DNA of 64,000 bases from an uncultured Verrucomicrobiae bacterium (GTDB lineage: Bacteria > Verrucomicrobiota > Verrucomicrobiia > Limisphaerales > JAFGQR01). Of the stretch, positions 42,963 through 63,688 are shown piece by piece (position 1 is the stretch's first letter; each line of letters opens with the position of its first letter). Location of the stretch: assembly GCA_963788655.1 (NCBI GenBank), contig CAWBHS010000100.1, forward strand, positions 31,278 through 95,277. Direction: 5' to 3'. The notes below the pieces were generated by a model. The model was given only the letters and a program-made list of their open reading frames with translations. It ran no database searches and was not told where the DNA came from. Made by a program: the position numbers and the translations under genes.

Positions 42963-43095
42963 ATTTTTCTGCGGAACGCCGGTCCGCCGGCAGCTTCCAC
43001 TCAATCTGCCGATTGTTAGCGAAAAACGTTCCACGCCGGGCAAGGAAACGAGGATTGGAGCCGAATGTTGGGTGAGGGGATTAGCTGGCGGCCCT

Positions 43096-43323
43096 CGAAC
43101 CTCGCGAAGCGTATGGAGTGCGTGGAGCTTGCTCCCACTTTCGGTTCACGCGGGTACGCAGGAACAATTACCGTGTGCGCCATCAACTGGCCCGCCGCCG
43201 CTACCGCCGGGCGTGGCGCAGAATTCTATTCTGCTGTATCGCCAATTTCCAATCGGCAGGGCGTCCGCAGGTCCGGGCGCGTCGGAAGTTACCCCCGCCC
43301 AGCGAACTGCAAGTCCGCGCTAC
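43096..43323. repeat. Two REP-like elements (GGAGTGCG..GAGCTTGCTCC family and GTAGCGCAGA family)
   Basis: 43096-43142 is nearly identical to 49769-49815; 43213-43323 is related to 3021-3133. Confidence 0.65.
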
Positions 43324-60159: not shown

Positions 60160-60470
60160 GGGCGTCGCGCGGACCCTGGCAAGCCCCCTTGGCGGGCAGG
60201 GCGTCGATTTTTTCGGTGACAACTCCAGCACTTGTTGATATAAGAACACCAATGCTGAGAATGCCTGATTTTGGGTTGAGGCTGAAATCCCTTGCCGAGC
60301 CACGTCGGAGAGGTAGGCCTCCAGTATTTATTCGCTGGTCGCCGGGGCGGGCACTTGAGGATGGAAGCGAATGGAACGCCGGAGCCAACCGCAATCGGAT
60401 TGCTCCATGGAAAAGGACAGATGCTTCAACCGGGTTACCGCCTGCATCCGTGGTATCGTCTCAGCCTCAC
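60160..60470 (-). pseudogene. intI: Truncated integron integrase (N-terminal domain only)
   Basis: MQAVTRLKHLSFSMEQSDCGWLRRSIRF...SE*ILEAYLSDVARQGISASTQNQAFSALVFLYQQVL. In-frame TAA at 60328-60330, a frameshift near 60210, and no catalytic domain. Confidence 0.8.
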
Positions 60471-60496
60471 CCTGGTTTTTCCTTAATGCCCTGTTG

Positions 60497-60973
60497 TCAA
60501 CAACTTGGCCGGTTCACTATGTGTTCACTGGTCGCATAATAATAGTTCGACCAATAAATGACGATGCCCTCGAAAGGCAATCCGTGGGTCGCGTTAAACC
60601 AGTCCAGCATATCCTGGGGCGTGTTGAAGCCATCGGCGCGGGCAAATTTAAATGGATGCTCCAACGGTCGGCCGTTCAAGCTGATGCCCTCATGGGTGAT
60701 ACGGATCGACGCCACAAATTCCACCCTGGTTTCACGCAACACCCGTTGCTTGCTTCGATACGGGGCGCCGGTCCAACCCCGTAAACTGAGCCGGTCTCCC
60801 GGCTTTGGCATTCGCTTCGGAACGGGCCGCACAGTCTGGCATTTCTCACCCGAAAGCACCAGCCCAGCGAACTGCGGCTTAAACATACGCACGAAGGTCG
60901 AACCAGGCGACGCACCGAACCGCCGATCCGCTTGGCCGTTCGGTGCTGGCGTTTCGTGTTGTGGCTTTTTCAT
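60497..60973 (-). CDS. ASCH/PUA-like protein, cassette 1, antisense to the array
   Basis: FKPQFAGLVLSGEKCQTVR...KPGDRL (ASCH G.K..T.R motif); FARADGF....M..WF. Alternative start at MFKPQF (60886). Confidence 0.7.
   Translation of the reverse strand: MKKPQHETPAPNGQADRRFGASPGSTFVRMFKPQFAGLVLSGEKCQTVRPVPKRMPKPGDRLSLRGWTGAPYRSKQRVLRETRVEFVASIRITHEGISLNGRPLEHPFKFARADGFNTPQDMLDWFNATHGLPFEGIVIYWSNYYYATSEHIVNRPSC
60505..60551 (+). other. Putative attI site
   Basis: GTTCACT direct repeats at 60512 and 60523, then gcataataata-G/TTCGAC (60545-60551). This core is the exact complement of the next attC R'' box, GTCGAAC. Confidence 0.7.
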
Positions 60974-61006
60974 GGTTCGCGGCAGTCGGTGGTCTTGGCG
61001 TTAGCC
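60897..61006 (+). other. attC site 1
   Basis: R'' GTCGAAC ... R' GTTAGCC; internal palindrome caccgaaccgccg / gcggcagtcggtg. Confidence 0.8.
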
Positions 61007-61477: not shown

Positions 61478-61603
61478 GGCTAACCAGATCACTGGAGCGA
61501 ACAGCCGCCCCGCTTCTCCGCTTGACGCTGAGGGGCAGTTCGGGTGCGCCTCGTGCGCTCCACCGTCACTGTCGGCGGCTGTCGCTCAGTTCGGTCGTTG
61601 GGC
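61478..61603 (+). other. attC site 2
   Basis: R'' GGCTAAC ... R' GTTGGGC; gagcgaacagccgcc / ggcggctgtcgctc. Confidence 0.85.
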
Positions 61604-61612
61604 GGAGTAATT

Positions 61613-61960
61613 GTGAGACGCATTCCGATAATCTTGATCGCCTTCCTGATAGGGATCGCTCTGGAGTTGATGCTACTGATGATTGGTGGCTTCGATCTTC
61701 GGATTGGAGGCGACGGCCCTGCGAGCCTTGTTTTGTTCATCACACATCTTCCAGCGATGTACCTTTGCAGCGCTCTTCCATTGAAGCTCCAGACAGACTT
61801 GGCCGTGATCATTGCAATGACATGCTTGCTCTCCATTGCGGCATTCATGATTATCAGTCTCCTGAGAATGCGACGATCAGAACCGCGACCGAAGGCCCAA
61901 CAAGTGCGATTGACCGAACAGCCCACCCGCCTGGCAGCGGACATTGATCATGAAAATTGA
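61613..61960 (+). CDS. Cassette 3: small hypothetical membrane protein (about 3 TM)
   Basis: GGAG then a GTG start; hydrophobic segments; the ORF runs into attC3. Confidence 0.6.
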   Translation: MRRIPIILIAFLIGIALELMLLMIGGFDLRIGGDGPASLVLFITHLPAMYLCSALPLKLQTDLAVIIAMTCLLSIAAFMIISLLRMRRSEPRPKAQQVRLTEQPTRLAADIDHEN

Positions 61961-62020
61961 GACTCACATTTGCAGTCGAGGCTGGCGCTTCCGGGGCTGT
62001 CGGTCATCTCGGCGTTCGGC
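61895..62020 (+). other. attC site 3
   Basis: R'' GCCCAAC ... R' GTTCGGC; tgaccgaacagccc / gggctgtcggtca. Confidence 0.8.
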
Positions 62021-62034
62021 AACATGAGGAAAGT

Positions 62035-62724
62035 ATGCGAGTTCTCACTTTATTTCTGATATTCGTTGGCCAAGCTGCATTAGCGAGCGATGCAAGTCTG
62101 GCCGTTGAGGATTTGAAGAACCACGTTGATGACCTGACGCTGGTTGTTATCGGACGCCCCGGCTTTTCACTTCCGAAGGTTGGAGACCGTCCTTGCTTTA
62201 CGAAGTTACATTCCGGCAAAGCCGCGTTCGGAACTCAAAATGATGCTTGGTTTGGAGGCGCGCCGTCCGCGTCCGATATAAAGATCACGCGCAAAGAAAT
62301 GCTGGCCGTTGTTCAAGCGTTTGAGGAAAAGTTGCTTCAACGATCTGTTCGCCGCATCATCGCACTCGACGAGCTTAAGAGATCGGCGCCAGGTTATCCA
62401 ACCCATGTGTTTGAAGGGGGTAAAGAAGGACTGACTGCGGGTGCTGTCGCGGTCGGCTATACCGCTGCGGACTCAAGAATTGTCTATTACCTGGTACGGT
62501 TCGACGATCGGGACGAGGCGATACAGATGCTGACGAAACTCCAAGGCGATGTGAATAAGTCTGAGTCGGCTGCTACCGTGATTGGGAATGTTATTTGGAG
62601 ACTCAAAGAAAGAAATGCCGAACCAGACGGCGCAGCGAACGTGAGCCAGCCGTTCAGCTCGCAAGAAAAAACGAACGTCATCGGCGGCTGGCTCCCGTCG
62701 CTGGCCTTTGCGTTAGGCGCATGA
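62035..62724 (+). CDS. Cassette 4: hypothetical secreted protein
   Basis: GAGG RBS; MRVLTLFLIFVGQAALA signal peptide; the ORF reads through attC4. Confidence 0.6.
   Translation: MRVLTLFLIFVGQAALASDASLAVEDLKNHVDDLTLVVIGRPGFSLPKVGDRPCFTKLHSGKAAFGTQNDAWFGGAPSASDIKITRKEMLAVVQAFEEKLLQRSVRRIIALDELKRSAPGYPTHVFEGGKEGLTAGAVAVGYTAADSRIVYYLVRFDDRDEAIQMLTKLQGDVNKSESAATVIGNVIWRLKERNAEPDGAANVSQPFSSQEKTNVIGGWLPSLAFALGA
62617..62718 (+). other. attC site 4
   Basis: R'' GCCGAAC ... R' GTTAGGC; cagcgaacgtgagccagccg / cggctggctcccgtcgctg. Confidence 0.85.
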
Positions 62725-63567
62725 CGCTGCACTTCACCGAGCCGCCGTCGAAGGAGGGAATTCCCGCGGACAGTGGAACGAACTCTGTCCCAAGCCCGAT
62801 GAGCGCCTTGAGTCGCATTGCCCTGATCGCGGCCCTGGGCCTGGCATTCGCAGCGACACTCGTTGCGTCCTGGCCGTTAACGGGCTGGCTCAAGCAGGTG
62901 ATCAAGATTCCCCGGAGCGGCTATGTTTCGTACAATGAGATTGTGGCAGAGATGCTGAGCAGAACGGCGCTAATCGTTGTCTGGTCATTGCCGTTGTTGG
63001 TCCTACCTCAGCTCCGTGACATCGGCTCGTTTCGGCTCCCACGCACTTGGACGCCTTTACTGTTGTTTCCCATTCTTGCTCTCAACATCTACTTCTTTGG
63101 CCGCTTTCCCGTTTCCATTCCCTTGCTGGCTCACTTTACCCTCGCTTGCGATGGAGTATTACCAGCGGTCGTCGAGGAGCTAGTGTTTCGCGGCTATGCT
63201 TTTCGGCGCTTTCCCAAAGCGCATCCGCGACTGGTGGTTCTCACCTCCTCGGCGTGTTTTACACTTGTCCATTTGGTGAATGTCGGCACCGGCTCTGTTG
63301 CCTCGGGTACTTGCCACTTTCCCATTTGTATTCGCTTGTGGCTTGAGCTTCGGAGTCATCCGCATGGCATCGGGCAGTCTCGCCTGGTGCATGCTTGCGC
63401 ATGGAGCCGTCAACGCCTCGTCAGCACTGGCAATGACAGGTGGCCCCCGCGAGCAGATGCTCCCCTTTGTCACGGCGATCGTCGGCATTGGAGCGGTGAC
63501 GACGTTCTTCTTACACCCGAAACTCCGAAGTCGCCCACTTACGCCTGACGCACCGAAATGCGCCTAA
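62721..63567 (+). CDS. Cassette 5: CPBP (CAAX/Abi-family) intramembrane metalloprotease; frameshift near 63310
   Basis: VVEELVFRGY, FTLVH, and CMLAHGAVN in the 63280-63567 frame; stop inside R'' of attC5. Alternative start at 62799. Confidence 0.75.
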
Positions 63568-63688
63568 CAAAACGGATGCACACGAACCGCCGCCCCGCCT
63601 CTCAGTTTCGATCCTCCGGATTCTTCGGACACTGGATTCGCAGCCAGCGTCCACTCCCGGCGGCGGTCGGTGATCCGTGTCGTTAGGC
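63562..63688 (+). other. attC site 5
   Basis: R'' GCCTAAC ... R' GTTAGGC; cggatgcacacgaaccgccg / cggcggtcggtgatccg. Confidence 0.88.

Follow-up and report, generated by a model that had tools for sequence, protein, structure and literature searches.

Integron cassettes are usually treated as promoterless genes that are read from the cassette promoter Pc, with the attC recombination site as a non-coding element behind the gene. The 64-kb stretch of Verrucomicrobiae DNA analyzed here (the window) ends in a chromosomal integron array on the plus strand, from about 60.2 kb to 64 kb, and the first cassette of this array raises the question of how a gene is organized, and from where it could be expressed, when it runs against its own attC site. 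The gene in question encodes a small ASCH-like protein, and its family departs from the usual picture three times: it lies on the other strand, its apparent start is in the attC loop, and the neighbor determines where it ends. Our explanation for the whole layout, which we regard as rather probable, is that a bottom-strand ASCH gene fills the cassette, with its start in its own attC and its end in the neighboring site.

Anatomy and polarity of the first cassette

Cassette 1 (60546-61000, plus strand, 455 nt) is bounded by G|TT at 60545/6 and 61000/1. Its recombination site, attC1 (60897-61006, plus strand), carries the R'' box GTCGAAC at 60897-60903 and the R' box GTTAGCC at 61000-61006, and was matched over its full length by a covariance model, R1, with 68.3 bits (E 8.4e-16). 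To the left lies the attI region (60448-60545, plus strand), which ends at the crossover base G60545. The 7-bp core site GTTCGAC (60545-60551, plus strand) is the reverse complement of the attC1 R'' box at 7/7 positions, and the crossover falls at G60545|T60546, one base to the left of where a quick reading would place it. The stretch 60187-60551 shares 80-83% identity with three other attI regions of the same genome (contigs C69, C46 and C44); two of these can be aligned as far as 60551, where they part into different first cassettes, and the third reaches the end of its contig at 60549. Because the similarity among the genome's attI copies ends at 60549-60551, the position of the junction is independently confirmed. 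The remnant of the integrase gene intI (60217-60447, minus strand) is a pseudogene that retains only the N-terminal SAM-like part (TIGR02249 positions 5-82 of 315, E 4.4e-10); its translation contains one internal TAA, similarity is lost beyond the SAM-like N-terminus, and the match to PF13495 is weak (E 1.4e-4). Cassette 1 thus possesses an attC site with R''-L''...L'-R' arms, a complementary 5' boundary and a place in an array beside attI and an intI remnant, as integron cassettes do. It departs from a typical cassette in that its open reading frame (ORF) is antisense to both attC and Pc, starts in attC and stops in attI. As the attI-proximal cassette it may be the latest acquisition, as the preliminary description discussed below supposed, although the intI beside it is now a decayed stub.

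The longest ASCH-like ORF spans 60497-60973 on the minus strand and encodes 158 amino acids, from an ATG at 60973-60971 inside attC1 to a TGA at 60499-60497. Codons 1-26 overlap attC1, so that the N-terminal extension (60896-60973, minus strand) is encoded by the attC1 loop together with the R''-L'' arm; the R'' box coincides with G24-S25-T26, and F27 begins one base past it. The conserved ASCH core, defined by an alignment of 40 homologs (A1), extends from F27 to W141 (60551-60895, minus strand) and thereby fills the space between the attC1 R'' box and the 5' core site. No stop codon of this ORF occurs within the cassette. W141 (60553-60551) overlaps the core site by one base and N143 is encoded by GTT at 60547-60545, the complement of the core site specifying S142-N143 and the last base of W141. 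The remaining residues, 144-158 (YYYATSEHIVNRPSC), and the TGA are encoded by attI (60497-60544, minus strand), and this tail has no counterpart among the homologs in A1. These positions bear out most of a preliminary description of this DNA, which had placed an ASCH-like ORF opposite to the array, with its first ATG at 60973 and about 25 codons within attC1, and had it cross the recombination point without a stop in the cassette. That description had also let the ORF end beyond attI; the end at 60497 is correct, but this position belongs to attI itself, about 50 nt short of the intI remnant and upstream of it.

The polarity of the sites was determined with R1 (Infernal), a model built from 17 attC sites, of which the window supplied four and two further arrays of this genome supplied 13; attC1 and all sites adjoining an ASCH gene were excluded from its training set. 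On the minus strand the sites of the window scored 15-18 bits or nothing, and attC1 had no match there at E<=1; since the same sites score so poorly on that strand, R1 tells the two strands apart. An independent arm-alignment test placed all unpaired extra bases on the AAC-bearing 5' arm of the plus strand in all five sites, in the case of attC1 a bulged G and a bulged A. The text available to us of a study on wild-type attC sites states that it is the AAC arm that bears the extra-helical bases in the top strand, and the other arm that bears them in the bottom strand (Nivina 2016, PMC5027507), and by this rule the plus strand is the top strand. The assignment agrees with the plus-strand ORFs of cassettes 2-6 and with the location of intI on the left. 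Regarding site detection, a fold-based detector was dropped as it missed attC1 and attC4 and gave wrong bounds for attC3, and an arm-alignment detector followed by R1 was used instead. The arm-alignment detector returned four matches scoring >=18 in 57 kb of the non-integron part, and single sites found by it were therefore not trusted without the context of an array.

Two further observations concern attC1. In minimum-energy predictions, the canonical attC fold is rivaled by a strong local hairpin at 60912-60946 on the plus strand (GCACCGAAC...GTTCGGTGC), and the arm-test score of attC1 is below those of the neighboring sites. As a recombination substrate, attC1 may be weakened.

Recurrence of the layout and the nature of the protein

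A protein search retrieved 396 homologs at E<=0.001; the genomes with close homologs that bear names belong mostly to Verrucomicrobiota. DNA of relatives was collected at 68 genome loci, 80 metagenome loci (the best 80 of 311) and 38 IMG/VR loci. The called homologs measure 114-215 amino acids around a core of about 115 residues, which in A1 runs from F-V-R-(M/L)-F-K-P-Q-F-A to G-(I/V)-V-I-x-W and is flanked at either end by unrelated sequence. The C-terminal motif was present in 117 of the 120 listed proteins: 86 have W-x-N followed by unrelated tails of 2-91 amino acids, 14 stop no more than two residues on, and 17 are of other kinds. At the DNA level, both end motifs were found in 74 of 149 sequences (genome and metagenome loci plus the window), half of which (37/74) read TGG-NNN-AAC. 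Among these 37, an upstream GTTNNNC box that is the reverse complement (>=6/7 positions, mostly 7/7) of the downstream heptamer was found in 26, mostly located 0-4 nt before the F/H-V-R codons. The box pairs differ by lineage and co-vary (GTTCGGC/GCCGAAC, GTTCTGC/GCAGAAC and GTTGTGC/GCACAAC), which is the apparent signature of a working R''/R' pair.

The orientation of these relatives was uniform. In other arrays, 24 non-identical copies of the cassette were compared, and in each of them the gene runs antisense to all attC sites detected. All 47 of the R1 matches in 23 other loci lie on the strand opposite to the gene, and the bulged bases fall on the gene-proximal arm in 39 of 39 instances, from 19 loci with a recognizable stem. 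Of the 23 loci, 19 have an attC whose end lies just upstream of the gene; in 10, the attC of the neighbor starts precisely on the last base of the W codon, so that the gene reads into the attC of the previous cassette. The same type of cassette is seen behind attI in the window and behind various attC sites in other arrays. The layout, i.e., an antisense gene with a frame open into attC and a tail set by the neighbor, is by this comparative evidence a family trait, and the earlier proposal that the neighboring site determines the C-terminus agrees with the 86 of 117 proteins that carry W-x-N with unrelated tails and with the 10 loci just mentioned. Cassette-borne copies are also under purifying selection: in 11 cassette-cassette pairs the ratio of nonsynonymous to synonymous substitution (dN/dS) was 0.03-0.34 (one further pair was saturated), and values of this size indicate that the protein is maintained while in cassette form.

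A second family shows the same arrangement. The gene at G000:C17:39831-40493 (L211; also L220:3332-3994, plus strand) encodes an MT-A70 methyltransferase (E 4.4e-31, residues 27-192 matching profile positions 1-172). The gene runs antisense to the six attC sites that the model detects there, has an ATG in its own attC with the domain directly following, and ends in the attC of its neighbor. The 958 MT-A70 homologs split into proteins with short N-termini (e.g., MKFRT) and short ends and proteins with long leaders, an x-N motif and variable tails; the long leaders end in box-encoded G-S-A-F or G-S-G-F-like residues. Because the inverted layout recurs both in the relatives of the ASCH gene and in the MT-A70 family, it represents a class and not an accident, and the inverted class suggested in the preliminary description is, judged from these genes, real in at least two families. 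The MT-A70 gene was the only one of 12 other open antisense frames in the arrays of this genome to have a Pfam match, and the remaining frames are perhaps shadow frames. Six antisense frames that span a whole cassette, with an in-attC ATG and MK-type starts, and that lack a Pfam match, are located at C9:105362-105832, C17:40477-40845, C17:39496-39834, C49:290865-291359, C59:2987-3469 and C59:60347-60649; they could be further members of the inverted class or only shadow frames.

The AlphaFold2 model of the window protein, computed from A1, has a mean predicted local distance difference test (pLDDT) score of 85, with the core (residues 26-141) above 90 and residues 1-20 and 151-158 at 53-58. 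When the model was compared with the PDB by Foldseek, ranks 1-11 were all ASCH proteins, with YqfB (9kyh_B; E 4.3e-4, probability 1.00, template modeling score 0.76 on the target) and ZmASCH as the best matches and PH0355 also included. The octapeptide G-x-K-x-x-T-x-R is conserved: G42, K44 and R49 are invariant and T47 is conserved in at least 90% of the 40 sequences. Lys21, Thr24 and Arg26, reported as essential for YqfB in the portion of the literature consulted (PMC6972931), have the same spacing as K44, T47 and R49, and the accessible part of a recent preprint defines a GKTR form of the ASCH octapeptide (bioRxiv 10.64898/2026.02.27.708502). The same 2026 preprint, as far as its available text goes, reports that 19 of 19 ASCH proteins tested remove N4-acetylcytidine (ac4C) from tRNA (10.64898/2026.02.27.708502). 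D114, H130 and Y72 are also invariant in A1; in YqfB-like proteins, the other residues with 100% conservation are Asp27, His70, Glu74 and Tyr89. The model and the motif together indicate that the gene encodes a small ASCH-fold enzyme of the GxKxxTxR (YqfB-like) type, as the preliminary description had supposed, and the protein may act as an amidohydrolase on N4-acylated cytidine or on a modified base like it. PHROGs contains a family of unknown function, phrog_8581, that matches the ASCH protein (E 3.2e-12); in PADLOC, no family was matched by this protein or by four other cassette proteins. The protein forms an uncharacterized branch of the ASCH enzymes, a group recently linked to removal of N4-acetylcytidine.

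Translation start, expression and competing explanations

The explanation that we favor can be set out along the gene. Cassette 1 is a member of a widespread family whose single gene lies on the bottom strand and runs against both Pc and its own attC. Its start would be an ATG in the variable loop of that attC, with A-rich codons usually after it and a Shine-Dalgarno-like GGAGG sometimes ahead of it, and the next 20-30 codons would be the R''-L'' arm of attC, giving a disordered N-terminal leader. The folded domain extends from 0-4 nt past the R'' box to a Trp codon that overlaps the 5' core site. With no stop of its own, translation would cross the junction through W-x-N, in which N is the AAC of the core, into the neighbor, which is attI here and the attC of the previous cassette elsewhere; a stop would usually follow within 2-25 codons, yielding a variable and presumably disordered tail. 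The gene probably derives from phage early-region genes, in which free-standing relatives lie.

The part of this account that concerns the start rests on a comparison of 24 copies. Upstream of F27, all 24 keep the gene's frame open over 20 codons or more, and an ATG occurs 15-35 codons upstream in 23 of them, the exception being L014, in which the ATG directly follows the R'' box. For the two remaining frames, 6/24 and 17/24 copies are open, and an ATG stands at this distance in 0/24 and 1/24. The in-attC ATG falls in the variable loop just past the distal arm, usually with A-rich codons after it (MKK, MKT, MKS), and GGAGG precedes it in L108 and L109. L101 and L109 have near-identical cores (dN 0.02) and different attC interiors, both with an in-frame ATG. 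The free-standing relatives start 2-12 codons before FVRM; F-V-R is hence part of the protein, and a cassette copy must start in attC. The earlier proposal that attC supplies the translation start accordingly finds good comparative evidence, short of proof, in the distribution of the loop ATG (23 of 24 copies, against none and one in the other frames), and the gene would then be translated from this ATG and transcribed from a putative promoter on the bottom strand.

A number of observations weigh against this explanation. The 24 copies are related by descent and hence are not independent; attC loops are not alignable between most lineages and fall by eye into about 17 kinds. The ATG at 60973 of the window lacks a Shine-Dalgarno-like motif, and from either of two starts just outside attC1, GTG at V28 (60892-60890, minus strand) and ATG at M30 (60886-60884, minus strand), the domain would be almost whole. 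Folded as mRNA, the attC1 region does not exceed shuffled sequences in stability (z = 0.06), and the fold for that reason says nothing on access to the start codon. Among the sequencing runs searched, no RNA run was listed for this stretch, and four DNA runs contained 0.07-0.10 of the sampled words. A consensus scan found no sigma-70-like promoter on the minus strand in or just beyond attC1, Verrucomicrobial promoters being poorly defined and other promoter types outside the scan; the only minus-strand match, at 60564-60536, lies within the 3' end of the ORF. In addition, the gene faces a Pc-like promoter head-on, and antisense interference is consequently likely at this locus. That promoter match (TTCACT-16-CATAAT, 60513-60540, plus strand; 2 sites found by the consensus scan vs. 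0.3 expected) points into the array, is conserved in the four attI copies of the genome and ends 5 nt before the crossover, its complement encoding part of the ASCH tail; it is a candidate Pc, placed in attI rather than in intI. Regarding the protein, the window copy reaches only 14.2 bits with Pfam PF04266 (E 0.074), below the gathering threshold of 21.2, as compared with matches at E<=0.01 in 18 of 40 relatives (best 7.2e-6). PDB searches with the protein sequence and the family profile gave chance-level matches only (RNase J2, E 0.48; uL3, E about 0.1), which is why the fold search was needed, and by motif register the equivalent of YqfB Asp27 is Pro50, the residue after R49. Lastly, open antisense frames that reach from attC to beyond the 5' boundary occur in 13 of 42 cassettes examined in the arrays of the genome, and chance makes such frames common in DNA this rich in GC. 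Despite these frames, the ORF goes beyond chance because of its 396 homologs, its ASCH fold and its family-wide layout.

Three other explanations were considered. The least credible, to which we give hardly any weight, is that the polarity was misread, so that a normal sense gene sits in a minus-strand array or the true gene is a plus-strand ORF at 60558-61004. By inspection the R''/R' heptamer rules are symmetric between the strands, and this plus-strand ORF begins 12 nt past the junction and stops in the R' core, like a typical cassette gene. Yet it has no Pfam match and stops interrupt its frame in half of the relatives (12 of 24), and we rejected it as a shadow frame; the minus-strand array was rejected since the covariance scores (68 bits for attC1 on one strand and nothing on the other) and the arm with the bulged bases (five of five sites) both give the plus strand, with intI and attI on the left and five other cassettes carrying plus-strand ORFs. 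An explanation of more weight, though still an improbable one, accepts the layout and moves the start just outside attC, to V28 or M30, leaving the attC-encoded leader as an untranslated 5' region kept for the structure of attC or by descent. The M30 codon is indeed ATG in 26 of 32 copies and the V28 codon GTG in 21 of 32, the leader is predicted to be disordered and varies freely in sequence, and the free-standing relatives have short N-termini; the missing Shine-Dalgarno-like motif points the same way. Some copies, however, have neither start: L080 has CTC and GTC at the V28/M30 codons and no start near the domain, and the only ATG of L014 abuts the R'' box. M30 is replaced by L, I or V in 17 of 111 proteins. 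Initiation at M30 would also remove half of strand beta-1 (T26-F31 in the AlphaFold2 model), F27-V28-R29 are conserved as protein, and an open frame and an ATG that are specific to one frame would be hard to explain for a leader that is not translated.

The last explanation concerns the window copy in particular, and holds that it is a silent stored passenger, unexpressed and antisense to Pc beside a decayed integrase, the conservation of the family stemming from other contexts only. The intI remnant, which covers 78 of 315 model positions and contains a stop, the opposing Pc-like promoter, the lack of a bottom-strand match in the sigma-70-like consensus scan and a frameshift in another cassette of the array would all fit. 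We nonetheless judge it unlikely: the window copy keeps all of the invariant family residues and an uninterrupted frame, cassette-borne copies are under purifying selection among themselves, such that the cassette state is compatible with function, and every array position is antisense to Pc, so that the family must have another route of expression.

Phage links, array context and known systems

The homologs also bear on the history of the gene. Among 73 distinct cores, 28 are of the cassette type, 8 carry AAC without a matched box, and 37 end at a stop of their own; in 36 of these 37 own-stop loci there is no attC-like site within 230 nt. Sampled own-stop loci adjoin genes for DUF5131, RecT, a PDDEXK protein, a Mu Gam-like protein and holin, a phage early-region neighborhood. 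The preliminary description had named homologs that start at MFKPQF with their own promoter and no association with attC as evidence against its interpretation. This holds by half: free-standing homologs with their own start and stop and no attC do exist, in the form of these 36 loci, but they occur alongside the attC-bound form without displacing it. In a tree of the cores, based on 117 columns, with 27 of 70 forks unresolved and with form labels taken from simple motifs, the cassette and own-stop forms are interleaved. A single origin of the cassette form is not supported, as the tree needs at least 8 changes on well-supported branches, and the cassette form thus appears not to constitute one tidy clade. 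Traffic between phage-type and cassette contexts, in one direction or the other, is likely on this evidence. Two loci may record moves between the two states, as decayed or former cassette copies: L005:2482-2835, in a RecT/PDDEXK phage-type neighborhood, keeps a box-encoded 'LLCHVRM' leader and has its own stop, and L093:2028-2381 has a matched box with AAT in place of AAC at the core.

Of the 38 IMG/VR loci, 6 are of the cassette type. The IMG/VR record behind L165 (L221-L223; 44,065 bases) has an integron-type integrase at its left end (306.7 bits, above the cut-off). At its right end lie nine attC sites with an inverted ASCH cassette among them, and the record also has the phage genes for a primase, the terminase large subunit (phrog_15, E 1.6e-74), a head protease/portal-like protein, a tail fiber and ParB. 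Its first ~128 bases recur at ~42998-43125 and the copies diverge just past a GCCCAAC heptamer, a repeat that would fit a circular phage or phage-plasmid with one complete integron; the search for an overlap between the ends found none, however, and the record is listed as linear in IMG/VR. The idea of a link to phages has a basis in the relatives, namely in the phage-like neighbors of the free-standing ones and in this IMG/VR record. It is not supported for the array of the window, which the preliminary description had thought possibly phage-borne: the 64 kb hold chromosomal genes.

The window is the last part of a 95-kb contig, with which it shares its end, from a genome of 8.96 Mb. Most of it is ordinary chromosome, with genes for a DNA polymerase III delta-like protein (holA-like), BacA, GDP-mannose dehydratase, two-component systems, Na/H exchangers and Dak1; to the left of the integron lie a BlaR1/BlaI-like pair, read from the translations, and a GH32 gene with a lectin domain. 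Beyond attC1, the covariance model R1 placed attC2 at 61478-61603, attC3 at 61895-62020, attC4 at 62617-62718 and attC5 at 63562-63688, all on the plus strand, and a sixth R'' box lies at the end of the window, i.e., of the contig. Cassettes 2-6 have plus-strand ORFs between their attC sites and, by inspection, also obey the rule that the 5' core is complementary to the R'' box of the same cassette. In cassette 5 (62799-63567, plus strand), an Rce1/CPBP-like protease is split over two frames (Pfam positions 6-56 vs. 58-92); the frameshift, near 63.28-63.30 kb, reflects either a pseudogene or a sequencing error. The genome as a whole is unusually rich in integrons, with at least 10 clusters of at least 3 co-oriented attC-like sites on eight contigs. 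Three intI loci exceed the TIGR02249 cut-off, two of them with an in-frame stop, and an intact copy lies on C69; C69, C46 and C44 carry near-identical attI regions.

A broader idea follows from reading the ASCH frame on into its own attC, as in an excised circle or beside a like site. In 18 cassettes so read, the stop overlaps the ATG as ATGA in 7 (the window included), lies within 10 nt of it in 8 and falls elsewhere in 3. Such closure of the stop near the ATG may need no selection, as an A/T-rich loop and GC-rich arms may cluster stops. As a speculation that we think doubtful, there could be a general class of 'whole-circle' cassettes, consisting of phage-derived genes for nucleic-acid modification (ASCH, MT-A70) on the recombinogenic bottom strand. 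In these, attC would be coding, with the start codon in its loop, and both of its arms would be translated in the circle, integration would sever the gene from its own stop, so that each insertion site would yield another C-terminal tail, and expression would be independent of Pc, possibly being set by the recombination state or by an attC-borne promoter. If this were true, attC could carry translation signals, and the birth of a cassette need not follow the scheme of a gene followed by attC. Use of the in-attC start would in itself place attC under protein-coding and translation-signal constraints as well as structural ones, and would lead gene callers to mis-annotate such genes. The mix of cassette and phage-type forms on the tree and the MT-A70 family point to gene traffic between phage early regions and integrons, and the family offers a concrete system for asking how cassettes are born.

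In the literature search, which left subscription journals outside, no description was found of a bottom-strand cassette gene that starts in attC without its own stop, nor of ASCH cassettes. Several known systems resemble parts of the layout. Reverse-oriented ORFs occur in the toxin-antitoxin cassettes of Vibrio superintegrons, which have in common with the ASCH cassette a gene independent of Pc, a normal attC polarity and an ORF that may point the other way. Toxin-antitoxin and other integron cassettes carry their own promoters, according to the text consulted of PMC8876359. Cassettes of that kind hold a complete gene, with promoter, start and stop, in the cassette body, whereas the body of the ASCH cassette holds the folded domain only, with the start in the attC loop and no stop. 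The same source, in the part available, describes how in class 1 integrons the stop of ORF-11 in attI1 is supplied by the core site of the cassette (PMC8876359). As with ORF-11/ORF-18, the ASCH frame crosses the junction between attI and cassette and its end depends on the insert; unlike the ASCH gene, which is a full enzyme gene on the bottom strand that runs in the opposite direction and ends in attI, ORF-11/ORF-18 are short top-strand leader peptides that aid the translation of the first cassette.

For transcription on the bottom strand there is a precedent as well. Gene-less cassettes of Vibrionaceae superintegrons contain antisense promoters, and the transcription that arises from inside them on that strand interferes with upstream genes, as stated in the accessible sections of Blanco et al. 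(2024, PMC11014356). Those cassettes encode no protein, in contrast to the ASCH cassette, which encodes a conserved bottom-strand protein and for which no promoter was found in our consensus scan. Some phage genomes carry attC arrays and integron integrases, and DNA methyltransferases occur in clusters of attC sites lacking integrases (CALINs) of phages, as outlined in the available text of Qi et al. (2023, PMC9892861); ASCH is not mentioned in that text, and its uses of 'orientation' do not concern ORFs that start in attC. The IMG/VR record behind L165 fits this phage-borne kind of integron, and the array of the window is a chromosomal one. At the protein level, the gene is like the YqfB-type ASCH amidohydrolases (Escherichia coli YqfB, PDB 9kyh/9kyf, and other ASCH proteins reported as erasers of tRNA ac4C) in its PUA-like beta-barrel fold and the spacing of its octapeptide, and unlike YqfB in its sequence (~16% identity, with no significant PDB match) and in having, by motif register, Pro50 at the Asp27 position. 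Taken with these systems, cassette 1 is of a known kind, the integron cassette, but with a new layout, one that recurs widely and extends to a second family.

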